Of a DNA stretch of 32,492 nucleotides, positions 2,632 to 30,134 are shown one piece after another. Origin of the DNA: Thiomargarita sp. Its GTDB lineage: Bacteria > Pseudomonadota > Gammaproteobacteria > Beggiatoales > Beggiatoaceae. How positions within the stretch are numbered: the first letter of the stretch is position 1; each line of letters begins with the position of its first letter. Both the position numbers and the translations under genes were made by a program. Under the pieces are notes generated by a model. It worked only from the letters and a program-made list of their open reading frames with translations. It made no database searches and was not told the origin of the DNA. The DNA lies in contig DYSU01000028.1 in the NCBI GenBank assembly GCA_020726335.1, positions 1-32,492 of the forward strand, given 5' to 3'.

Positions 2632-3939
2632 TTAGCCAAAAATATCATGGGTAATGTTGGCAAACCAACTGTACGCATAGTGTACTTCACGGGCTTTTTG
2701 TTCAGGTGTGGCATCGGCTGGGGTTAAACCACCTGAAACTTGGGTGATGGTTTCACCTTCCAAACGATACACGGCAGTCACAGAAATACCATAGTTAGGG
2801 CCGATGATGCTGTAACAGGTATTGACATAGGCAGGTGTCACCATTTCTTTGCCTTGCAAGGAAGCGATCACGGCAGTGGCACACACTTTGGCTTGTGAGC
2901 TGGCAGAATAGGCTGATTTTGGCATGTCAGTGGCAATACATGCGTCGCCAATCACATACACGCCTTTATGCACGCTTGATTCAAAGGTTTGTTTGTTGAC
3001 AGGACACCAACCTGATTCATTGGTCAAACCCGCTTGGTGTGCAATTTTGCACGCCACTTGAGGCGGGATCACATTCAACACATCGGCTTTGATGACATCT
3101 TCCATTTCGCCTGCGGTCACGGTTTTGGTTGTGGCATCAATTTTAACCACTTTACCACCGCCGCTGGCGGGCCGCCATTCAATCAAACTGCCTTCATTTT
3201 TGCCATTTTGCTCAATATCATAGCCGTATAACTCTTTCCAACCTTGGGTAAATAAACCTTGTTTGGAGAATTTATCACTGGCATCTAAAATCAATACTTT
3301 AGATTTGGGTTTGTTGTTTTTCAGATAATGCGCGATTTGGCTGGCACGTTCATAAGGTCCAGGTGGGCAACGGAAAGGGCTGGTGGGTGGGCAAATGACC
3401 ACAGTGCCACCGTCGGCCATTTCTTCCAATTGCTTGCGCAATAACGCTGTTTGTGGACCTGCTTTCCATGCGTGCGGAATGGTTTCAGAGGCTTTTTCAT
3501 CGTAACCTTCAATTGCATCCCATTTAAAACCGACACCAGGGGAAACCACAATGCGGTCAGCGGTAAAATCACCCGATTTAGCGGTGGTCACTTTTTTGGT
3601 GGCCGCATCAATGGCGGTGACTTCATCAATCACCACTTTAACGCCATGTTTGCCTAAACCGTCGTAGCCAAATTTAATGCTGTCTAAACTGCGGTCGCCG
3701 TTCAACACTTCATTGCTCATAAAACAAGTGTGGTAATCGGCATTTTTTTCAATCAAGGTCACTTCAACAGAAGGGTCAGCCATGCGAATGTATTTGGCTG
3801 TGGTTGCACCACCGACCCCTCCACCGACAACCACCACTTTTTTGCCTTCACCTTTGGCAATAAAAGGGATGCCAGAAAAGCTGATTGCAGCGGTGCTGGC
3901 AGATAATTTTAAGAAATTTCTACGAGTTATTTGCGTCAT
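2632..3939 (-). CDS. fccB: Flavocytochrome c sulfide dehydrogenase, FAD-binding flavoprotein subunit, Tat-exported
   Basis: A twin-arginine signal is present ([14 protein letters not shown]). The FAD fold motif [16 protein letters not shown] is present. Overall length matches FccB/SoxF-type sulfide dehydrogenases. The ORF-track start at 3954 is a TTG. I prefer the in-frame ATG at 3939, which is preceded by GGAGG with an 8-nt spacer and puts the RR motif near the N-terminus. Confidence 0.85.
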
Positions 3940-3956
3940 ACTGTTTTCCTCCAAAC

Positions 3957-5569: not shown

Positions 5570-8526
<2,957 letters not shown>

Positions 8527-8562: not shown

Positions 8563-9183
8563 TTAATGACCCAGACCAGAAATATACGCGGCGACCGCTT
8601 CCATTTCAGTGTCGTTCATTTTGCTGGTGATGTCTTGCATGATTTGGGTTGAAGGGCTGCCTGTGCGGCTGCCATCACGAAAAGCTTTTAATTGTTTGAC
8701 CACATAGGCCGCTTGTTGGCTTTGAATTTGAGGATAATTGGCCGCAGGATTGCCCATGCCTTTTTCACCATGACAAGCCGCGCAAGCCATTAAATTTTTT
8801 GCCAAATCACCGCCATGATAGATTTTTTTACCCACTTTATTGTCACTGGGCGCACCCAAAGTCAACTTTTGACGGGAAAAATGGGCGGCTAAATTGGCCA
8901 TGTCTTGTTCGGTCAATGGTTCAACCATCGGTTGCATGGAAGGGTCAATGCGGGTTTTGCTTTTAAATAATTTCAACTGGTTGACGATATAATCAGGATG
9001 TTGGCCTGCTAATTTTGGAAAGATCGGAACAAGGCTGTTGCCGTCAGCCCCATGACAGGCAGCACAAGTGACCGATTTTTCCTTACCTGCGGCAGCATTG
9101 CCCGCCATTTTAACCGCAATATCTGTGGCGAAAACGGCATGAGAAGCGGCTAAAATACTCAGGGCTAAAGTCAATTTTTTCAT
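8563..9183 (-). CDS. Cytochrome c4 (diheme, periplasmic)
   Basis: There is a signal peptide. Two CxxCH motifs are present (CAACH twice). FPKLAGQ and YPQIQSQ motifs are diagnostic of cytochrome c4. Confidence 0.85.
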   Translation of the reverse strand: MKKLTLALSILAASHAVFATDIAVKMAGNAAAGKEKSVTCAACHGADGNSLVPIFPKLAGQHPDYIVNQLKLFKSKTRIDPSMQPMVEPLTEQDMANLAAHFSRQKLTLGAPSDNKVGKKIYHGGDLAKNLMACAACHGEKGMGNPAANYPQIQSQQAAYVVKQLKAFRDGSRTGSPSTQIMQDITSKMNDTEMEAVAAYISGLGH

Positions 9184-17452: not shown

Positions 17453-18832
17453 ATGGCAGCATACCAGTTTGTTGTAAAACAAATAAAAAATATTTTAGAA
17501 TCGGTCACTAAATCAGGCAAAAAAGGCTTAATGGCCTCGCAGGTTGCTTTGAAACCGACCGCGCCCCATTATCAGCAGCCCGTTATTATCCCCCGCGCAC
17601 AACACGGTATTTCACGCAAACACATCAGCAAAAACGCGCTTAAAGTGTTGTATCGATTAAAAAGCAGTGGTTATCAAGCCTATTTAGTCGGTGGCGGCGT
17701 GCGTGATTTGTGGTTAGGGCAACAGCCTAAAGATTTTGATGTTGCCACCGATGCACACCCTGAAGACGTGCAAAAAGTGTTTCGCAATTGTCGGTTAATC
17801 GGGCGGCGGTTTCGTTTGGCGCATGTTCATTTTGGCCAAGACATCATTGAGGTTGCGACGTTTCGCGGTGAACACGATGAACAAGCACCCGAGAATTTGA
17901 CGGAAAAAGGACGGATTGTCCGCGACAATGTTTATGGAAATTTAGAACAAGACGCTTGGCGGCGTGATTTCAGCATCAATGCCTTGTATTACAATATTGC
18001 TGATTTTTCGGTGGTGGATTACACCCAAGGGTGTGCCGACTTAAAAAACGGCGTTATTCGCCTTTTAGGCGATTCTTTGCAACGTTACCGCGAAGACCCT
18101 GTGCGCATGGTGCGCGCACTGCGGTTTATGGCCAAATTAGATTTCAAATTGCATCCTGACACTGAAAAACCGATTCATTCTATGTTGCCATTATTGGCTG
18201 ATGTTCCCAGTGCGCGCTTGTATGAAGAAATTTTAAAATTATTCCTCACAGGTCACAGTGAGAAAAGCTTTCATTTATTGCGCCAATACGGGGCTTTTGG
18301 CCAACTGTTTTCGTTGACCGACAAATACCTTGATCAATCTGACCATTTTCAATTAATTGAGCAAATTTTAAAAAACACTGACCAACGGCTGGCACAAAAT
18401 CAACGGGTGATGCCTGCGTTCTTTTTTGCCAGTTTGTTGTGGCCTGCGTTGTTGGATTTAATGGCGCAACAACAGCAAGCGGGTTTAAGCTTCTATGACA
18501 GTTTTCATCATGCCAGCCATGATGTGTTTAATCAACAAGTTAAAACGGTGGCCCTTCCCAAACGTATCACAGTCACGATGCGGGAAATTTGGCAATTGCA
18601 ATTTCGCTTGGTCAATAAAAAAGGCAAAAGCGGGGCGCATATCGCCTCTCATCCACGTTTTCGTGCCGCTTACGATTTTCTGTTGTTGCGGGCAAATTTT
18701 GATGACAGTTTGCAAGAAGCGGTTGATTGGTGGCAAACTTTCTATCAAGAAGCCCAAACCAACCCTGTTGCCGTGAAAACCAAATCATCCCATTATTTAC
18801 GTCGCGGTTATCAGAAAAAAATTATTACATAA
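17453..18832 (+). CDS. pcnB: Poly(A) polymerase I
   Basis: The conserved core LVGGGVRDLWLGQQPKDFDVATDAHPEDV..RNCRLIGRRFRLAHVHFG aligns with E. coli PcnB. Confidence 0.9.
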   Translation: MAAYQFVVKQIKNILESVTKSGKKGLMASQVALKPTAPHYQQPVIIPRAQHGISRKHISKNALKVLYRLKSSGYQAYLVGGGVRDLWLGQQPKDFDVATDAHPEDVQKVFRNCRLIGRRFRLAHVHFGQDIIEVATFRGEHDEQAPENLTEKGRIVRDNVYGNLEQDAWRRDFSINALYYNIADFSVVDYTQGCADLKNGVIRLLGDSLQRYREDPVRMVRALRFMAKLDFKLHPDTEKPIHSMLPLLADVPSARLYEEILKLFLTGHSEKSFHLLRQYGAFGQLFSLTDKYLDQSDHFQLIEQILKNTDQRLAQNQRVMPAFFFASLLWPALLDLMAQQQQAGLSFYDSFHHASHDVFNQQVKTVALPKRITVTMREIWQLQFRLVNKKGKSGAHIASHPRFRAAYDFLLLRANFDDSLQEAVDWWQTFYQEAQTNPVAVKTKSSHYLRRGYQKKIIT

Positions 18833-18848
18833 CAGGAAGTTAAGTATT

Positions 18849-19718
18849 TTGAATGCTCATTTCAAACGCAATGGTGTCAGGCTTTATCTGGGTGATGTAA
18901 TTGATGTATTAAAGCAATTACCCGATGAAAGTGTTGACCTGATATTTGCTGATCCACCCTATAACTTGTCAAATGACGGTTTTACTTGCTATGCAGGCAA
19001 ACGGGTCAGTGTTAATAAAGGAAACTGGGATAAGAGCCGAGGCATCAATACAGATTTTGAGTTCCATTATAATTGGTTACAAGCTTGTAGGCGCGTACTA
19101 AAACCCAATGCTTCATTGTGGCTATCTGGAACATATCATTCAATATATGCTTGTGGTTATGCTATTCAACAGCAAGGTTGGCACATTATTAATGATATTT
19201 GTTGGTTTAAACCCAACGCTACACCCAACTTATCATGTCGTATGTTTACCGCAAGTCATGAAACCCTGCTTTGGATAAGAAAAGATAAGAAAGCAAAACA
19301 CGTTTTTAACTATGAGGTAATGAAAAATGGTGATTTCCCAGATGATTTAATAAAAAAGCCCAATAAACAAATGCGAAGTATTTGGGCAATTAGTACCCCA
19401 AAAAATACAGAAAAAAGACATGGTAAACATCCTACACAAAAACCTGAATCATTATTGGACAGAATTATCCTTGCTTCATCAAATGAAAATGATATTGTAC
19501 TTGACCCCTTTTGTGGTAGTGCGACAACAGGTGTTTGTGCTTTAAGACATCATCGTCGATTTATTGGTATTGATAATAACAGTGAGTATTTAAACAATCT
19601 GGCCATTAAAAGATTAGGTGATGTAGTTGATGAAAATCAAGCATTCTTTATTAGAGAACAACAAACGGAATATCGTTTTGATACATTGGATGGTTTATTT
19701 GAAAATAAAAGGACTTAA
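18849..19718 (+). CDS. Beta-class DNA methyltransferase (DPPY motif, N6-adenine or N4-cytosine), methyltransferase of a putative Type II R-M pair
   Basis: Motif IV DPPY is at residues 35-38 (LIFADPPYNLSNDG). The AdoMet motif DPFCGSATTG is near the C-terminus, which gives beta-class order. The TTG start at 18849 lies 8 nt after AGGAAG. The gene is AT-rich relative to its flanks. Confidence 0.8.
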   Translation: MNAHFKRNGVRLYLGDVIDVLKQLPDESVDLIFADPPYNLSNDGFTCYAGKRVSVNKGNWDKSRGINTDFEFHYNWLQACRRVLKPNASLWLSGTYHSIYACGYAIQQQGWHIINDICWFKPNATPNLSCRMFTASHETLLWIRKDKKAKHVFNYEVMKNGDFPDDLIKKPNKQMRSIWAISTPKNTEKRHGKHPTQKPESLLDRIILASSNENDIVLDPFCGSATTGVCALRHHRRFIGIDNNSEYLNNLAIKRLGDVVDENQAFFIREQQTEYRFDTLDGLFENKRT

Positions 19719-19720
19719 CA

Positions 19721-20329
19721 ATGGAAAGAAAAGAAGCTATTGCCCGTTTAAAAACGATTGTTGGCCAAGAGTTGCATCATATTGCCAAACAATATAATGT
19801 CACAGTAAATAAGGATGGTAAAGTTAATAAAGGTTGGGCAGGTCATATTTTTGAAAGATTTTTAGAATTACCTATTAATTCTGCCCAGTCTCCCAATTTT
19901 GGTTCATGGGAACTTAAATCAATACCCATAAAAACACTAAAAAATGGTAAGAAAGTGATTAAAGAAACAATGGCAATCACCATGATTGATCCAATCAATG
20001 TTTGTCAAAAAGATTTTGTAGACAGTCATTTGTTAGCGAAATTAAAAAAAGTGGTGCTTGTGGCCAGAACGGTAGGACAGACTGTTGATGATCCCAGTTA
20101 TATCCATTCGATTATTGAGTTTGATTTACAGGGTGAACTGTATCATAAGGTAAAAACTGATTATGACCTTATCAGAGAGATTCTACTTGATCCAAAACAG
20201 GGATTTGATTCATTAACTGGAAAGATGGGTGTTTATATACAGCCAAGAACCAAGGGGACTGGGCATGGCTCAAAAACGCGTGCATTTTATGCACGAAAAA
20301 AGTTTTTACAAGCGTTTATTAGAATTTAA
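19721..20329 (+). CDS. MutH/Sau3AI-family (PD-(D/E)xK) endonuclease, single domain, putative GATC-specific nuclease of the R-M pair
   Basis: KGWAGHIFERFLELP..SPNFGSWELKSIPIK aligns with the MutH core KGWxGxLLExxLG...DFxxxGxELKTIP. The C-terminus FYARKKFLQAFIR resembles MutH FYLKKNFTSALLARHF. The ATG lies 2 nt after the methyltransferase stop, with AAAGGA upstream. The gene is AT-rich. Confidence 0.7.
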   Translation: MERKEAIARLKTIVGQELHHIAKQYNVTVNKDGKVNKGWAGHIFERFLELPINSAQSPNFGSWELKSIPIKTLKNGKKVIKETMAITMIDPINVCQKDFVDSHLLAKLKKVVLVARTVGQTVDDPSYIHSIIEFDLQGELYHKVKTDYDLIREILLDPKQGFDSLTGKMGVYIQPRTKGTGHGSKTRAFYARKKFLQAFIRI

Positions 20330-20353
20330 CTAAGCTGTCTATTGGAGTGGATA

Positions 20354-23354: not shown

Positions 23355-24197
23355 ATGGCCATTTATGTTATCGGTGATATTCAAGGCTGTTATCAAGAAT
23401 TGCGTCAATTGCTGGATAAAATCCAATTTGACCCTGCCAAGGATAAACTGTGGAGCGTGGGCGATTTGGTCAATCGCGGCCCTGATTCTTTACAAGTTTT
23501 ACGATTTTTCAAAGCGTTAGGTAAGCGTGGGCAAATTGTATTGGGCAACCATGATTTAACCTTGTTGGCGCGAGCCTATGGCAACTTGACTTATCAACAT
23601 CCGCACGACAGTTTAGAACCCATTTTAACCGCGCCTGACCGCAATGAATTGCTTGACTGGTTGCGCCACCAACCTTTTTTATTTCACAGCCCAAAACAGC
23701 AAGTGACCTTGATTCACGCAGGTTTGCCGCCGCAATGGACTTTGGCGCAAGCGCAAAGTTGTTCCCAAGAACTTGAAAGCATTTTACAATCAGAACAACA
23801 CGTTACCTATTTAAGCCAACATATTTTTGGCGAAACACCCAGCCATTGGTCAAAAGAGCTGACAGGTTGGCCGCGTATTCGCTTTATTGCCGCCTGTTTC
23901 ACCCGTTTGCGTTATTGTGACGCGCTGGGCCATTTGCTGTTGAAACAGAAAATGGGGACTCATCAAACAGACCAACGTGGTTTCCCATGGTTTGCCCACC
24001 CTAAACGAAAAACCGCCAAAGATACCATTGTTTTTGGTCATTGGGCCACTTTGGGTTATCATGACCAAAACAATGTTTATGCGTTGGATACAGGGTGTTT
24101 GTGGGGCGGCAAATTAACGGCATTGCGCCTGAAAAACAAAACCCTGATTCAAATTCCTTGTCCCAAAGCGCATGACCCTGCGCAATTTAACGGTTGA
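23355..24197 (+). CDS. apaH: Bis(5'-nucleosyl)-tetraphosphatase, symmetrical
   Basis: MAIYVIGDIQGCYQELRQLL..GDLVNRGPDS..GNHD are the ApaH metallophosphatase motifs. The start is at ATG 23355, just after the rfbB stop. The ORF-track start at 23151 overlaps rfbB. Confidence 0.85.
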   Translation: MAIYVIGDIQGCYQELRQLLDKIQFDPAKDKLWSVGDLVNRGPDSLQVLRFFKALGKRGQIVLGNHDLTLLARAYGNLTYQHPHDSLEPILTAPDRNELLDWLRHQPFLFHSPKQQVTLIHAGLPPQWTLAQAQSCSQELESILQSEQHVTYLSQHIFGETPSHWSKELTGWPRIRFIAACFTRLRYCDALGHLLLKQKMGTHQTDQRGFPWFAHPKRKTAKDTIVFGHWATLGYHDQNNVYALDTGCLWGGKLTALRLKNKTLIQIPCPKAHDPAQFNG

Positions 24198-24204
24198 AGC
24201 CATC

Positions 24205-26463
24205 ATGAACCCTCCTCGTTTAATCCCCGTTGTTGTGCTGTTATTGGCCGCTTGTGGCAAATCCAATCAGTATTTGACCCCGCAAGACTTAAAAAACAAC
24301 ACGTTATCCAACGCATCCGTTGAATTAAATGCTTCAACCCCCGCATTGTCTGTTCAGCGTGGTGCAGTGTTCACCGACAACAACGCCGCTTTTGCCCACA
24401 AGCTGGCCTTGGTCAACCGCGCTCAACACAGCATCGACATGGCCTATTACATTTATGCCAATGATTACAGTTCAGCGGTGTTGAGCCAAGCCTTGTTGGC
24501 CGCCAGCCAACGCGGGGTTAAAGTGCGGCTGTTGGTCGATTACCACAGCAATTACAACCGCTTGGATTTTTTTCTGATGTTGCAACAGCACAGCCATGGC
24601 CAAATTCAAGTGCGCTTTTACAACCGTCCCGATGGGCAGTTAATCAAAGACGCGGTTTATTTGACCCTGCCTTGCCCTGAAAACACTGCGCGGGCCGATT
24701 GCGGCGCGGCCAAATTTAAGCACATAACCGACAAGCTTACAGGTAAAGACCTTGCCAATTACAACAGCGGCGGTTCGGGGTTGTTTTTATCCGGTTTATA
24801 CAGCAAAAAACCCGATGTCCTCGGTGCCGCGATTATCGAAGGGCAAAAGCTTGATTTAAGTCAATTTTTTCCCAAAGACAATGGCCAAAGTGGGCAAAAT
24901 TCACAGGATTTGACCGCCTTGTTTGATTTTGCCAAAGTCTATTGGGCCTCGCGTCATACCACAGGCTTTGACCGATGGGCCGCCCAATTAAAATTGGAAT
25001 TGGCACTGGCGTTGTATCATGAAAAACTCAACCCCATCATGACCGCCGTGCGCGCAGTCTTGCCCATTGGTGAGCGTCCCGATGAACAAGCGGCGTGGCA
25101 AGCGTGGCAACATTTCACCGATTATTTGCACCACAAGTTTTTATTGGTCGATGGTCAACATGTGCAATTGGGTGGGCGCAATATTGAAGACCCGTATCAC
25201 ATGAATTTCAATCCCTTGGTGGAAAAATATGTGTTCATGGACACCGATGTGGCGTTGGATTTAAATCAAACTTCAGCGGCTTTGCAACACAGTTTTGAAG
25301 CATTGTGGGATTTCAAAACCATGACCGCCGATTTAGACGAGGTGTTGGCGCACGCACCCAATGATTTTGTTGTGGCCCATGACAACGCGCAACAACAGTG
25401 CCTGCCGCAAAGTGATTGTTATCAAAAGACTTTCTTACAACAAAACCGCCAGCAACGCCAACAACAACAGCACATGCTGATGCAACAACACGCCGCCACC
25501 TATTGGGCGCAAGCCATGCCAAAAACCACAGAATCCGATTATGTTATTGATAAGACTGCGAAAATTTATTATCTGGAAAATCTGCCGTTTCAACGCCAAG
25601 CCCAAGACAAACAACGGCTGTTTGGCGCAGTCCATAACCAAGAAGGCGCGTCAGGCAAAGCGATTCATCAAGTCTGGTTGGCGGCATTGCGCAACACCTG
25701 CCAGCAAGCCAGCGCAGAACATCCGCAACACATTTGGTTGCACAACGCCTATTTTTTCTTGCCGTTTATGATGCTCAGCCAATTGGCAGAAATGGTTGAC
25801 GGCAGCCAAGATTGCCGCCATGTGCATGTGAAGGTGTTGACCAATTCGCTGGCCACCACCGATTTGGGCATCATCAATTTGTTGTCGCGCTACAGCATGA
25901 AAGCCTTTGCCGATTATTATCAACACCATCGCCACCCTGAAAAAAGCGCAAGCTTCGCCTATTATGAATATTTGCCCCGTTATCAAAACCGCGACGGCGA
26001 AAATCTCAACCGCCATTCATTGCACAGCAAAGTCATGGTGTTGGGCGATGATATTTTTATTGGCTCAGCCAACGCCGATGTACGCAGTTTGATGATGGAC
26101 AGCAACAACGGTTTGTTCATCCGCGATGCACCGCAGTTTATCCACGCTTATGCCGCTGATTTATATCGAAAAATCAGCGATCCCCAGCAGGTCAAAGAAG
26201 TCACCGCCCATTTTTTTGGCTTGGATTTGGCCAAGATGCTCAACGAAGACAAAACGCAAATCTTTGATTTATTTCGCACTTTATTTGATATTCCCCAACC
26301 CAGCGAAGCCCGGCAAAAAGAAGAGGCTTGGTCGCAAGCGGTGTTGACGCGGGTGTTGCCCCTTTTGCAACAAGTGTATGAATTGAGTTCGCAAGGCTTG
26401 CAACAGCATTGGCACAATGAAAACTATCAAGCGCGGTTTAACGCTTATTTCAAATTCTTCTAA
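24205..26463 (+). CDS. Phospholipase D superfamily lipoprotein (two HKD motifs), 752 aa
   Basis: The N-terminus MNPPRLIPVVVLLLAACGK is a lipoprotein signal with a lipobox. Two HxKx4Dx6G(G/S)xN motifs are present (HHKFLLVDGQHVQLGGRN and HSKVMVLGDDIFIGSANAD). A Q-rich low-complexity linker (QQNRQQRQQQQHMLMQQH) is encoded at 25441-25494. Confidence 0.75.
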   Translation: MNPPRLIPVVVLLLAACGKSNQYLTPQDLKNNTLSNASVELNASTPALSVQRGAVFTDNNAAFAHKLALVNRAQHSIDMAYYIYANDYSSAVLSQALLAASQRGVKVRLLVDYHSNYNRLDFFLMLQQHSHGQIQVRFYNRPDGQLIKDAVYLTLPCPENTARADCGAAKFKHITDKLTGKDLANYNSGGSGLFLSGLYSKKPDVLGAAIIEGQKLDLSQFFPKDNGQSGQNSQDLTALFDFAKVYWASRHTTGFDRWAAQLKLELALALYHEKLNPIMTAVRAVLPIGERPDEQAAWQAWQHFTDYLHHKFLLVDGQHVQLGGRNIEDPYHMNFNPLVEKYVFMDTDVALDLNQTSAALQHSFEALWDFKTMTADLDEVLAHAPNDFVVAHDNAQQQCLPQSDCYQKTFLQQNRQQRQQQQHMLMQQHAATYWAQAMPKTTESDYVIDKTAKIYYLENLPFQRQAQDKQRLFGAVHNQEGASGKAIHQVWLAALRNTCQQASAEHPQHIWLHNAYFFLPFMMLSQLAEMVDGSQDCRHVHVKVLTNSLATTDLGIINLLSRYSMKAFADYYQHHRHPEKSASFAYYEYLPRYQNRDGENLNRHSLHSKVMVLGDDIFIGSANADVRSLMMDSNNGLFIRDAPQFIHAYAADLYRKISDPQQVKEVTAHFFGLDLAKMLNEDKTQIFDLFRTLFDIPQPSEARQKEEAWSQAVLTRVLPLLQQVYELSSQGLQQHWHNENYQARFNAYFKFF

Positions 26464-27154
26464 TGGCTTGACTTTGCTGGAAATGACGCTGGTGTTGTTC
26501 ATCATCAGCCTGTTGTTGGCCAGCGTGTTGTCGCCGCTTAACAGCCAAATCAAGTTGCGTCATTATCAAAACACCCAAGACCACATGAACACGGCCATGG
26601 AAGCCCTCATGGGCTTTGCGTTAATCAATGGCCGCCTGCCCTGTCCTGCGCTTGCCAGTTTAGCCACAGGCCAAGCCGATGCGGGCGCAGAAAAGCAAAA
26701 AGCCCAAGGTGATTGCGATAAAAATTATGGGGTATTGCCGTGGCTTACCTTGGGTTTGCCCGAAACCGACGCATGGGGACGGCGTTTGACGTATGCAGTT
26801 ACGGGTTTATTTGCCGACACAACCGCCGCTGAATGCGACATCAAAACCAACACCGCCTCATTTGGCTTGTGTTCTGCCGCCTCGCTCAATGTCTATGATG
26901 GCAGGGGTGGCAAAGTTGCCAGCAATATGCCCGTGGTGTTGGTGTCGCACGGGGCTAACGGTGATGGTGCTTATTTGCCCAGTGGCCAGCAATTGCTGTT
27001 GGTCGAACACGACAGCCACGAACAACAAAATTATGCCCAACACACCACGTTTATCGACAGCCATTTAGACAACGCGGCGTTTGATGACATTGTCGTTTGG
27101 TTGTCGCCGAAAATCTTGGCTTATCGCATGGTACAAGCGGGGGTTTTGCCGTAA
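26417..27154 (+). CDS. Prepilin-type N-terminal cleavage/methylation domain protein (type IV minor pilin or T2SS pseudopilin-like)
   Basis: NG|LTLLEMTLVLFIISLLLA matches a class III signal (Gly at -1, Glu at +5, hydrophobic helix). The only in-frame start gives a 17-aa leader and a 47-nt overlap with the upstream PLD gene. Confidence 0.5.
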   Translation: MKTIKRGLTLISNSSNGLTLLEMTLVLFIISLLLASVLSPLNSQIKLRHYQNTQDHMNTAMEALMGFALINGRLPCPALASLATGQADAGAEKQKAQGDCDKNYGVLPWLTLGLPETDAWGRRLTYAVTGLFADTTAAECDIKTNTASFGLCSAASLNVYDGRGGKVASNMPVVLVSHGANGDGAYLPSGQQLLLVEHDSHEQQNYAQHTTFIDSHLDNAAFDDIVVWLSPKILAYRMVQAGVLP

Positions 27155-27214
27155 TCGCTTGATGACGGGTATAATCCGCCTTTTTGAATTTAGATTATAA
27201 GGCATTGATGACGG

Positions 27215-27871
27215 ATGAAAATTGCGTTATTTGATTTAGACAACACGCTGATTGCAGGCGACAGCGACGCAGGTTGGGGTGATTATTTGGTTGAGCAAGG
27301 CATTGTCGATGGTGCAAGCTATGGCCAACAAAATCAGCGGTTTTTTGCCGATTATAAAGCAGGAAAATTAGATATTTACGCTTATTTGCATTTTCAGCTT
27401 AACGTGTTGGCACAACACCCTGTCGAACAATTGCACCGCTGGCGTGCGGCGTTTGTCGAACAAAAAATCAAACCGTGGTTGTTGCCCCAAGGTCAAACCT
27501 TGATTCAACAACATCAAAACGCGGGCGCGGTGGTGGCCATCATCACCGCCACCAATTTTTTTGTCGCTGAACCGATTGCACAAATGATGGGTGTGCCGCA
27601 TTTAATCGCCACCCGCCCCCGTTTGGAAAAGGGTCGTTATACGGGCGCATTTGACGGCATCCCAACGTTTGCCCACGGTAAAATCCAAGCATTTAATCAT
27701 TGGTTGGCAGGGCATCAACTGATGGCCAGCGAAACGTGGTTTTACAGCGATTCACACAACGACTTGCCGTTATTGCAACAGGTTGACCATCCCATTGCGG
27801 TTGACCCTGACCCCCTGTTGCAACAAACTGCACAACAAAACAGTTGGCCCATCATCAGCTTGCGACAATAA
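27215..27871 (+). CDS. HAD-superfamily hydrolase, subfamily IB-like
   Basis: MKIALFDLDNTLI is HAD motif I (DxD). Downstream motifs are S/T...K...(G)D(S)xND. Confidence 0.7.
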   Translation: MKIALFDLDNTLIAGDSDAGWGDYLVEQGIVDGASYGQQNQRFFADYKAGKLDIYAYLHFQLNVLAQHPVEQLHRWRAAFVEQKIKPWLLPQGQTLIQQHQNAGAVVAIITATNFFVAEPIAQMMGVPHLIATRPRLEKGRYTGAFDGIPTFAHGKIQAFNHWLAGHQLMASETWFYSDSHNDLPLLQQVDHPIAVDPDPLLQQTAQQNSWPIISLRQ

Positions 27872-27947
27872 AAAAACACGGATTGGACATCTGGCCTTAA
27901 ATTGTTTCTAATGTCTGAATTATTGCGGATTAGATCAGGAGTTTATT

Positions 27948-30134
27948 ATGGAGTTTTCCAGTATCAGCGTCGTTATTGTCATCGCCATTGCGGTGATTTT
28001 ATTGGGTATGTTCGTGTTTGTATTGCGCTTTTTCCAAAAAGTCGATCAAGGCAAAGCCTTGATTGTCAACACCATGAAAGCCGAACCTGTGGTCACGTTT
28101 ACGGGGCGAATTGTGTTGCCTGTGGTGCATAAATCCGAAGTGATGGACATCTCATTGAAAACCATCGAAATTGACCGCCGTGGCCATGAAGGGTTGATTT
28201 GCTGTGACAACATCCGCGCCGACATCAAAGTGACTTTTTTTGTGCGGGTCAACAAAACCAGCGAAGACGTGCTGAAAGTGGCGCAAGCCATCGGTTGCCA
28301 TCGCGCTTCTGACCAACGCACGTTAGAAGAATTGTTCAGCGCGAAGTTTTCAGAAGCCTTAAAAACCGTCGGTAAGCAATTGGATTTTGAGGATTTATAC
28401 AAAGAGCGCGATTCTTTTCGTGACAGCATCATCCGTTTGATTGGCAAAGATTTGAACGGCTATGTGCTGGAAGATGCGGCCATCGACTTTTTAGAACAAA
28501 CCCCGCTCAACTCACTGGACCCCAGCAATATTTTAGACTCTCAAGGCATTCGTAAAATCACCGAATTGACCACTGAACAGCATGTGCAAACCAACAATTT
28601 TGAAAACCAAGAGCGGATGCGTATCACCAAACAAAATGTGGAATCCCAAGAAACCATTTTAGAATTGGAACGCCGCCAAGCGGATGCGATGGCCAAACAA
28701 CAGCGCGAAATTCAAACCGTTAAAGACCGCGAAGCGGCAGAAATCGCGTCAGTGGCCGCCGAACAACGCAAACGCAGCGAACAAGCGCGCTTGGCGGCAG
28801 AAGAGCAAATCGGCATTTCAGAACAAAACAAACAGCGCGAAATTGAAGTGGCCGAGCAAAACCGCCAACGGGTGGTCGGCATTGAAACCGAACGGGTCAG
28901 CTTGGCGCGGGAACAAGAGGTGATTAAACGCGAAAAAGAAGTGGCGTTGTTGCGCATTGCCAAAGAAGAAGCCGAAGAAGAGAAAAGGCGCGACATCGCC
29001 AATGTGATTCGAGAACGCATTGCGGTGGAAAAAACCGTGGCCGAACAAGAAGAACAAATCAAAACCTTGCGCGCCACTGCCGAAGCGGAGCGTGATAAAC
29101 AAGTGATCATTTTAAATGCCGAAGCCGAAGCCGAAGAAAGCTTGGTCAAAGGCATCAAAGCGGCAGAAGCGGCGGAAAAAGCGGCCAGTTTCAAGGCGCG
29201 GGAAGTGATTGTGTTGGCCGAAGCCGAACGCGAAGTGGCGGATAAAAAAGCCTTGGCTAAAATTCGCTTGGCCGAAGGCACGCAAGCAGAAGCGGCGGCG
29301 GCGGGTTTGGCGCAAGTGGTGGTCAAAGAAGCCAATGCCTTGGCGATTGAAAAACAAGGCATTGCCGAGGCCAAAGCCAAATTGGAAAGTTACCGCGCTG
29401 ACGCGGCGGGTGAAGAGCAAAAAGGGCTGGCTTTGGCGCGGGTGAAAGAAGCCCATGCACAAGCCTTGGAAAAAGAAGGTTTGGTTCAGGCCAAAGTGGA
29501 ATTGGAAAAAATGCAGGCGGTGGCCATCGGTCAGGAACAACAAGGCTTGGCGCAAGTGCGGGTCAAAGAAGCTGATGCCGATGTGATTGAAAAACGCGGT
29601 CATGCGGAGGCGCAGGCATTAAAGGAACGCTTGTTGGCCGAAGCGGAAGGTTTGGCAGAGAAATTTAAATCATTGGATGCGCTCAGTGAACAAGGCCGAA
29701 GTCATGAGGAATTTCGCCTGCGTTTGGAACAAGAGTTGACCATGCAAAAAGAAATGATTAAAGCGCAAATTGTCAACGCGGAAAAACAAGCCGAAGTGCT
29801 GGCTTCGGCCTTGAGTAAAGCCAAAATCGATATTGTCGGTGGCGATGAACTGTTTGTCCATAAGTTGTTGAAAAGTACGGCGATGGCCAAAAGCATCGAT
29901 GGTTTTGCCCGCAAAAGCGAAACGGCCCAGCAGCTGTTCAAAGATTATTTCAGTGGCGATGCCAGTTTTACCCAAGATGTGAAACAGATTTTATCTGACC
30001 CCAGTTTGTCATCCAAAGATGTGCAGAACCTGACTTTGGCGGCGTTTGTGCAAAAGCTGATGCAAAAAGGCAACGTTGAACAAAAAGCGCAATTGGCTAA
30101 GTTATTGGATTTATTCAAAGAACAGCCCAAATAA
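27948..30134 (+). CDS. Flotillin/SPFH (band 7) family membrane protein, YqiK-like, with a long EA-rich coiled coil
   Basis: There is an N-terminal transmembrane helix followed by an SPFH domain. A 350-aa Glu/Ala/Lys-rich coiled coil with tandem repeats follows. SD AGGAG lies 6 nt upstream of ATG 27948. Confidence 0.8.
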   Translation: MEFSSISVVIVIAIAVILLGMFVFVLRFFQKVDQGKALIVNTMKAEPVVTFTGRIVLPVVHKSEVMDISLKTIEIDRRGHEGLICCDNIRADIKVTFFVRVNKTSEDVLKVAQAIGCHRASDQRTLEELFSAKFSEALKTVGKQLDFEDLYKERDSFRDSIIRLIGKDLNGYVLEDAAIDFLEQTPLNSLDPSNILDSQGIRKITELTTEQHVQTNNFENQERMRITKQNVESQETILELERRQADAMAKQQREIQTVKDREAAEIASVAAEQRKRSEQARLAAEEQIGISEQNKQREIEVAEQNRQRVVGIETERVSLAREQEVIKREKEVALLRIAKEEAEEEKRRDIANVIRERIAVEKTVAEQEEQIKTLRATAEAERDKQVIILNAEAEAEESLVKGIKAAEAAEKAASFKAREVIVLAEAEREVADKKALAKIRLAEGTQAEAAAAGLAQVVVKEANALAIEKQGIAEAKAKLESYRADAAGEEQKGLALARVKEAHAQALEKEGLVQAKVELEKMQAVAIGQEQQGLAQVRVKEADADVIEKRGHAEAQALKERLLAEAEGLAEKFKSLDALSEQGRSHEEFRLRLEQELTMQKEMIKAQIVNAEKQAEVLASALSKAKIDIVGGDELFVHKLLKSTAMAKSIDGFARKSETAQQLFKDYFSGDASFTQDVKQILSDPSLSSKDVQNLTLAAFVQKLMQKGNVEQKAQLAKLLDLFKEQPK
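29307..29640 (+). repeat. Three tandem copies of a roughly 117-nt (39-aa) in-frame repeat inside the flotillin coiled-coil region
   Basis: Units start near 29307, 29424 and 29545. They encode ..QGLAxVxVKEAxAxxIEKxGxxEAxxxLE... The repeat is coding, not CRISPR-like. Confidence 0.5.

Follow-up and report, generated by a model that had tools for sequence, protein, structure and literature searches.

The interval between pcnB and pepA in a 32,492-nucleotide (nt) stretch of Thiomargarita sp. DNA (assembly GCA_020726335.1, contig DYSU01000028.1; this whole stretch is hereafter the window) is occupied by two co-oriented open reading frames (ORFs), both on the + strand, which encode a methyltransferase (gene 1) and a nuclease (gene 2) and together form the cassette that we analyzed. 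An initial annotation, made from the sequence alone, had described this cassette as lying between pcnB and pepA with spacers of 16 and 24 nt, and the ORF coordinates agree with that description. The features of the locus, with product lengths in amino acids (aa), are as follows:

17453-18832, pcnB (Pfam PcnB 5.7e-40)
18833-18848, + strand, 16-nt spacer from the pcnB stop to the methyltransferase start, containing AGGAAG as the likely ribosome-binding site
18849-19718, + strand, methyltransferase gene (gene 1), 289 aa, TTG start; beta-class N6-adenine enzyme of DpnA / M.LlaDCHIB type, predicted product G(m6A)TC
18951-18962, + strand, codons of the DPPY catalytic motif, residues 35-38 (motif IV)
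19721-20329, + strand, nuclease gene (gene 2), 202 aa, ATG start; single-domain MutH/Sau3AI-fold PD-(D/E)XK-type protein, predicted GATC-specific restriction nuclease
19853-19918, + strand, active-site segment of the nuclease (E45 19853-19855, N59 19895-19897, E64 19910-19912, K66 19916-19918)
20285-20296, + strand, codons of R187-A188-F189-Y190, aligned by hhalign to R-G-F-Y212 of MutH; all four residues invariant in 120 homologues
20330-20353, + strand, 24-nt spacer from the nuclease stop to the pepA ATG, overlapped by one weak promoter-like match (9/12)
20354 (ATG), start of pepA (Pfam PepA 7.5e-126)

The methyltransferase stop and the nuclease ATG are 2 nt apart, and AAGGA precedes the nuclease gene. 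GC content is 0.32-0.38 within the cassette versus about 0.44-0.55 in the surrounding DNA, with means of 0.35 for the cassette and 0.46 for the remaining window, so the cassette is AT-richer than its flanks, as initially noted. A sequence scan of the two cassette borders found no terminator-like or strong promoter-like site at either, and the cassette, with neither its own promoter nor its own terminator there, is probably transcribed together with its neighbors, by read-through from pcnB into pepA.

The gene 1 product matches Pfam N6_N4_Mtase at 1.4e-60 and PADLOC MTase_II at 9.6e-98. Its motif IV (DPPY, residues 35-38) lies N-terminal to motif I (FCGSATTG, residue 221), which is the beta-class order, and by these profile matches and motifs we assign it as a beta-class N6-adenine DNA methyltransferase, in accordance with the class proposed initially. 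Over residues 4-256 (253 residues) the protein is 50.4% identical to M.LlaDCHIB, the second methylase of the LlaDCHI system on pSRQ700, and this identity spans the central target-recognition region as well. When the gene 1 product was aligned with its relatives and M.LlaDCHIB, 84 columns were invariant, and both DPPY and FCGSATTG were conserved without exception. Plasmid pSRQ700 carries the characterized LlaDCHI system, a relative of DpnII (PMC6458302), and its gene matched by gene 1 is the DpnA counterpart; pneumococcal DpnA methylates GATC and also accepts single-stranded DNA as a substrate (PMC3573125). From this homology, the gene 1 product is predicted to be an enzyme of the DpnA / M2.DpnII / M.LlaDCHIB type that methylates adenine in GATC. 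The codons of D35-P36 (GAT CCA, 18951-18956) themselves form a GATC site inside the coding sequence of the catalytic motif.

The top sequence match of the gene 1 product among solved structures is CcrM (6pbd, 1.2e-55), and a CcrM-type GANTC methylase was accordingly considered and rejected. Against the NCBIfam CcrM model (NF050803) the protein reaches 244 bits versus a cut-off of 830, with a match that extends no further than position 256 of the model's 350, and it lacks the CcrM C-terminal domain; the identity to M.LlaDCHIB and the exchange of partners with Dam-type enzymes, described below, also stand against that assignment.

The association between methylase and nuclease was counted at the 59 metagenome loci where the sequence upstream of the nuclease gene extends for 900 nt or more, using search patterns that favored Asn-type proteins (defined below), so that the count mostly describes the Asn clade. 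At 58 of these 59 loci an N6-adenine methylase gene lies directly upstream of the nuclease gene on the same strand: it is of the beta-class DpnA type at 48 loci and of the Dam type at 8, and both types are present at 2. The Dam-type partners exceed the NCBIfam dam cut-off (272-300 bits versus 115), and one matches DpnM (2dpm) at 1.4e-67. One locus, L107, has the gene order DpnM-like, DpnA-like, MutH-like, and reads as a DpnII-type cassette with a different nuclease. Characterized methylases of the DpnA type and of the Dam/DpnM type are both known for GATC adenine methylation. The strongest evidence on the target comes from this exchange: two unrelated methylase classes are interchangeable beside one nuclease family, which argues for GATC as the target of the nuclease and for N6-methyladenine (m6A) as the modification that blocks it. 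The window copy would share this specificity, judging from its homology and its partner.

Counts of GATC around the carriers of the family are consistent with such a target and lend it weak support. GATC is under-represented in host flanks, where three hosts have observed/expected ratios of 0.21-0.30 and three others ratios of 0.6-0.8. In none of the carriers examined is the cassette itself depleted of GATC, and 4 of the 34 GATC sites in the window fall within the 1.5-kb cassette.

The same pair of genes recurs far beyond this locus. Nucleases of about 70% identity are found in Bathymodiolus symbionts, Thiomargarita, Sedimentisphaerales, Thermodesulfobacteriota and others, in unrelated gene neighborhoods, and distant members, about 46-48% identical to an Asp-type query, occur in Desulfonauticus and Firmicutes. 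In every host examined, the GC content of the cassette is below that of the host flanks. By these distributions the pair is a widespread mobile module acquired horizontally, and the horizontal origin first suggested from composition is upheld both by the foreign GC content and by the recurrence in unrelated genomes and contexts.

Several variants of the module were seen in other contigs. In the loci of Bathymodiolus-symbiont type (L012-L016), an extra ORF of 84-86 aa (5738-5998) with no significant Pfam match lies between methylase and nuclease, and a 37-aa ORF (6606-6719) overlaps the nuclease stop; the window cassette has neither. The cassette in these loci is flanked by a yebC-type gene and a pentapeptide-repeat gene. 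An Asp-type member (PDFGDWELK) is encoded in a phage-like contig with T7-type kinase and T5orf172 genes (L103 / L104, 829-4606), where two Dam-family methylase genes precede the nuclease gene. At the window locus itself there is an imperfect 16-nt direct repeat (14/16), with copies at 18814-18829 (GAAAAAAATTATTACA) and 20295-20310 (GAAAAAAGTTTTTACA) in the 3′-terminal parts of pcnB and the nuclease gene, and its start-to-start distance of 1481 nt equals the cassette length. We rejected this repeat as an insertion scar, because the second copy lies within conserved nuclease coding sequence and 13 equally good repeat families occur in the same 1.9 kb; it is probably a chance product of AT-rich sequence, though it may instead reflect microhomology where the cassette inserted.

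The gene 2 product was compared with sequence profiles and solved structures. Its profile matches were Pfam MutH (6.3e-13), NCBIfam Sau3AI (9e-18) and NCBIfam MutH (1e-14), the last two far under their curated cut-offs: the Sau3AI model (NF040973) gives 64.4 bits versus 300 and covers model positions 4-190 of 475, and the MutH equivalog models PRK05070 and TIGR02248 give 54.3 versus 243 bits and 39.7 versus 229.9 bits. Pfam MvaI_BcnI (PF15515) is matched at 26.9 bits versus a cut-off of 25, by residues 18-72 and over profile positions 4-55 of 227 only. Among PDB sequences the best match is Sau3AI (4pxg, 1.9e-7), with MutH (2aoq) at 1.8e-5. An hhalign comparison of the gene 2 profile with E. 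coli MutH gave a probability of 94%, and this alignment stops at MutH residue 221 of 229, inside the C-terminal helix that contacts MutL. The protein is only 20-23% identical to MutH. An AlphaFold model built from a 72-homologue alignment reached a predicted local distance difference test (pLDDT) of 86.5, compared with a pLDDT of only 35 for single-sequence prediction. In Foldseek searches with this model, the template modeling (TM) score was 0.80 for the MutH-DNA complex 2aor, 0.73 for the N-terminal domain of Sau3AI, and a weak 0.37-0.42 for BcnI and MvaI. The modeled gene 2 product thus has the MutH fold in a single domain, and the original description of a 202-aa MutH/Sau3AI-family protein is confirmed at the level of both profile and predicted fold.

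The window copy is an ordinary member of a very common nuclease family. The family comprises 3,635 database proteins (E<=0.001) in 863 clusters at 50% identity, 87 of which are at E<=1e-30. Pfam, NCBIfam and PADLOC hold no model dedicated to it, and public records name the gene 2 homologues variously as MutH, MutH/Sau3AI family, MvaI/BcnI family or hypothetical. The nuclease has no match among plasmid records; one record of an uncultured 595-kb phage (LR756511) encodes a 41%-identical homologue.

With MutH numbering (D70, E77, K79) verified against the K-12 sequence, the nuclease residues E45, N59, E64 and K66 correspond to E. coli MutH E56, D70, E77 and K79, and H103, K107, R176, K178 and Y190 correspond to H112, K116, R184, K186 and Y212. 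Of the PD...(D/E)XK motif, E45 and E64-x-K66 are present, and the Asp position is a conserved Asn. In HMMER alignments N59 stands opposite the catalytic Asp of Sau3AI (4pxg), of H. influenzae MutH (2aoq) and of E. coli MutH (2azo) alike, and the profile alignment to E. coli MutH likewise puts it at D70, so that the Asn initially placed there proves correctly placed. Among the 120 nearest homologues, which are 69-76% identical and mostly 202 aa long, 119 have Asn at position 59; E45, E64 and K66 never vary, and H103, K107 and Y190 show little or no variation. Across 78 distinct loci the Asn59 codon is AAT at 59 and AAC at 15, a synonymous turnover comparable to that of E64 and K66, and because both synonymous codons are used, Asn59 is under purifying selection.

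In the wider family, sampled as the 150 best representative clusters, position 59 is Asp in 79 and Asn in 43. Asn59 is accompanied by Ser62 (PNFGSWELK) and Asp59 mostly by Asp62 (PDFGDWELK), with the intermediate PDFGSWELK found among close relatives, and sister lineages with the Asp-type protein share the gene arrangement of the Asn type. On the sequences compared, the largest clade conserves Asn59, which is not a sign of decay in the window copy; the altered or weakened site suggested initially is corrected in this respect. Asn59 probably coordinates the metal as a neutral ligand, next to E45 and E64, and it may slow the enzyme.

Other positions bear on how the methyl group might be recognized. 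MutH Tyr212, the equivalent of Y190, has been reported as the sensor of GATC methylation state (PMC3848065), and MutH H112 and K116 position the DNA and the attacking water and act in MutL-dependent activation (bioRxiv 10.64898/2026.04.21.719898). Ala85 of the nuclease (19973-19975), which is invariant in the family, aligns with MutH Phe94, an equivalence made uncertain by a gap nearby. The MutH F94A variant is reported to nick GATC whatever its methylation state (PMC10940147), and if the equivalence is real, methylation sensing in this family would be unlike that of MutH.

We consider it likely that the two genes make up a Type II restriction-modification module that was acquired horizontally and has GATC as its specificity. 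The GATC restriction-modification cassette envisaged in the initial annotation is thus supported, by the 50% identity to M.LlaDCHIB, the MutH fold and the recurrent pair. In the mechanism that we propose, the DpnA-type methyltransferase would mark adenine N6 at host GATC sites, and the 202-aa MutH-fold nuclease would bind one GATC asymmetrically as a monomer, as MutH does, and cut 5′ of the G on the strand with the unmethylated adenine. Catalysis would be carried out by E45, N59, E64 and K66, with H103 and K107 in addition, Y190 would read the methyl group, and a double-strand break in unmethylated incoming DNA would arise from two successive nicks. BcnI and MvaI, efficient restriction enzymes that have one domain and act as monomers, cut both strands by such sequential nicking (PMC5766183), and MutH is able to cut both strands of unmethylated GATC (PMC3848065); it is by analogy with these enzymes that double-strand cleavage, monomeric action and the cut position are proposed for the gene 2 nuclease. 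The ‘nickase-sized’ nuclease of the initial annotation need therefore not be a nickase, as BcnI and MvaI have equally few domains and break both strands. Since the window cassette has a DpnA-type methylase only, this methylase must protect double-stranded DNA alone.

Several points weigh against this reading. Identity of 50% to a GATC methylase is no proof of the same specificity. The depletion count recommended initially gave a divided result: GATC is indeed under-represented in host flanks, but its depletion in the window is confounded by a general avoidance of palindromes. There, 30 of the 64 palindromic hexamers are absent versus about 0.15 expected from base composition, compared with 336 of 4032 non-palindromic hexamers; CCGG occurs 13 times versus 97 expected, CCWGG 5 times and CCSGG 9 times, and GASTC 7 times versus 47 for GAWTC, all of which suggests a long history with many restriction systems. 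For an empty-site comparison there is no close host relative, as a scan for PcnB in one genome per species gave at most 54% identity and no case with pepA downstream; the best PcnB homologues in the protein database are at most 60% identical, and two of the closest relatives have other neighbors. The searchable literature (REBASE not covered) holds no characterized or tested member of the nuclease family. At the active site, the AlphaFold model is low-confidence for residues 54-59, so the geometry of N59 is not readable from it; N59 stands where a metal-binding Asp is near-universal, and a survey of PD-(D/E)XK active-site variants reports relocated Glu and Lys and no replacement of the Asp (PMC3424549). 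Together with the inactivity of MutH D70A, as cited in PMC10940147, that survey makes the Asn clade unusual within the superfamily.

Alternative explanations differ mainly in what they make of the nuclease. It could belong to a system that only nicks, in which an attenuated or strand-limited Asn59 form nicks unmethylated GATC and serves defence or post-segregational killing via accumulated nicks. Such a role would suit a single-domain protein that aligns end to end with the nickase MutH, has Asn for the metal-binding Asp, and has Ser where Asp-type lineages have Asp62, and the cited inactivity of D70A in MutH (PMC10940147) is in keeping with it. A monomer that nicks either strand of a palindrome nonetheless ends in a double-strand break, as BcnI and MvaI do, and the Asp- and Asn-type proteins share an identical gene architecture with no context that separates them, which makes a nicking-only system unlikely in our view. 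The replacement of the key Asp could also be taken to mean that the protein is a catalytically inactive GATC binder, retained beside the methylase as a reader or regulator of methylation state, and the MutH-like gene of a katablepharid mitochondrial restriction-modification element was non-toxic in E. coli (PMC8099122). Without catalysis, however, E45, E64, K66, H103 and K107 would not be expected to stay invariant or nearly so throughout the Asn clade. The katablepharid protein, moreover, pairs differently, with a C5-cytosine methylase, and was tested in E. coli Top10. This strain is dam+ and would mask an m6A-sensitive GATC enzyme. We therefore regard an inactive binder as very improbable.

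Two further explanations keep an active nuclease and change its task or its target. The database label is often ‘DNA mismatch repair protein MutH’, and the equivalents of H112 and K116, implicated in MutL-dependent activation (10.64898/2026.04.21.719898), are conserved; on these grounds the pair might be a portable mismatch-repair module, a true MutH that works with MutL and carries its own Dam-like methylase. The scores of 54 and 40 bits against MutH equivalog cut-offs of 243 and 230 speak otherwise, as do the foreign composition and the methylase-then-nuclease order, which is a restriction-modification layout. Copies about 70% identical in distant phyla, with members in phage-like contigs, are at odds with co-evolution with a host MutL, and the nuclease falls about 27 residues short of the length of E. 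coli MutH, with an alignment that ends within the MutL-contacting C-terminal helix. A repair module is extremely unlikely in light of these points. A restriction-modification system with another specificity, either GANTC (CcrM/HinfI type) or GATC as part of a longer word, draws on CcrM as the best solved-structure match of the methyltransferase (1.2e-55) and on RGATCY, a form taken by none of the 34 GATC sites in the window. We rejected RGATCY as the target, as other carriers have it around them in normal proportions, and 30 of the 64 palindromic hexamers are missing from the window in any case. The low CcrM score (244 versus 830) with its missing C-terminal domain, the 50% identity to M.LlaDCHIB through the central target-recognition region, and the pairing of the nuclease family with Dam/DpnM-type methylases too all favor GATC itself, and a different target is quite improbable.

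The predicted GATC restriction-modification cassette can be compared with several known systems. MutH (2aor, 2aoq, 2azo) is like the gene 2 nuclease in its full-length fold (TM 0.80), its single domain and the predicted GATC target, and its residues E56, E77, K79, H112, K116, R184, K186 and Tyr212 have their equivalents in the nuclease. In contrast to MutH, the gene 2 nuclease has Asn59 for Asp70 and an Asn-to-Glu hairpin two residues shorter, is encoded directly after its own methylase, within a cassette that is mobile and AT-rich, and occurs in phyla not known for MutH. Sau3AI / LlaKR2I (4pxg) is a MutH-fold GATC restriction enzyme whose catalytic N-terminal domain is the best solved-structure sequence match, but it contains a second MutH-like domain, a non-catalytic effector (about 490 aa in all), and needs two sites, whereas the gene 2 nuclease has one domain. 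The partner of Sau3AI is a C5-cytosine methylase, and that of the gene 2 nuclease an N6-adenine methylase. BcnI and MvaI (2odi, 2oaa) use one MutH-like domain as a complete restriction enzyme beside a methyltransferase, though their structural similarity to the gene 2 nuclease is weak (TM 0.37-0.42). Their partner methylases belong to the N6_N4_Mtase family. They recognize CCSGG and CCWGG, with protection by N4-methylcytosine (PMC3001055). Cassettes of the DpnII / LlaDCHI / MboI type share with the window the DpnA / M.LlaDCHIB homologue, and L107 has their full DpnM-like and DpnA-like pair, but their nuclease is of another family: the product that is annotated on pSRQ700 as a ‘type II restriction endonuclease’ does not resemble MutH.

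Type II restriction-modification systems that use MutH-family nucleases are already known, as are single-domain monomeric enzymes of that structural family; the kind of system is ordinary and holds no large surprise. The searchable literature (REBASE outside its scope) contains no characterized GATC-specific single-domain member paired with m6A methylases and no discussion of the Asn variant. Many members of the nuclease family bear the label ‘DNA mismatch repair protein MutH’ in public databases and are, by context, restriction-modification nucleases, and methyl-directed mismatch repair deduced from such labels could be wrong. In evolutionary terms the family links MutH and Sau3AI, and a one-domain GATC nuclease that swaps methylases resembles a possible mobile ancestor of both. 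The conserved Asn, with Asp in sister lineages, amounts to a natural experiment on PD-(D/E)XK metal-ion catalysis. A further idea, which we hold to be doubtful, is that the Asn59 clade forms a natural PD-(D/E)XK class without the canonical metal-binding Asp, relying on a neutral Asn ligand with E45 and E64. If it were true, altered metal dependence or deliberately slowed, nick-biased cutting would be possible, a monomeric GATC nuclease of this clade might coexist with a single DpnA-type methylase, and the clade would be a mechanistic exception in a much-studied nuclease superfamily as well as a source of small natural GATC nickases. MutH is in use as a programmable GATC nickase (PMC10940147), and small natural MutH-like variants could be useful in the same role.

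Elsewhere in the window, a 315-aa ankyrin-repeat protein is encoded at 142-1089 on the - strand, a flavocytochrome c sulfide dehydrogenase flavoprotein at 2632-3954 on the - strand and a c-type cytochrome at 8563-9183; these genes suggest a sulfur-oxidizing gammaproteobacterial host, possibly host-associated. Downstream, 24172-30134 holds a run of large genes of unclear function, which encode a 763-aa PLD-like-domain protein, a HAD hydrolase, a 728-aa protein without a Pfam match, and a protein of 245 aa whose prepilin-type N-terminal methylation motif is weak.

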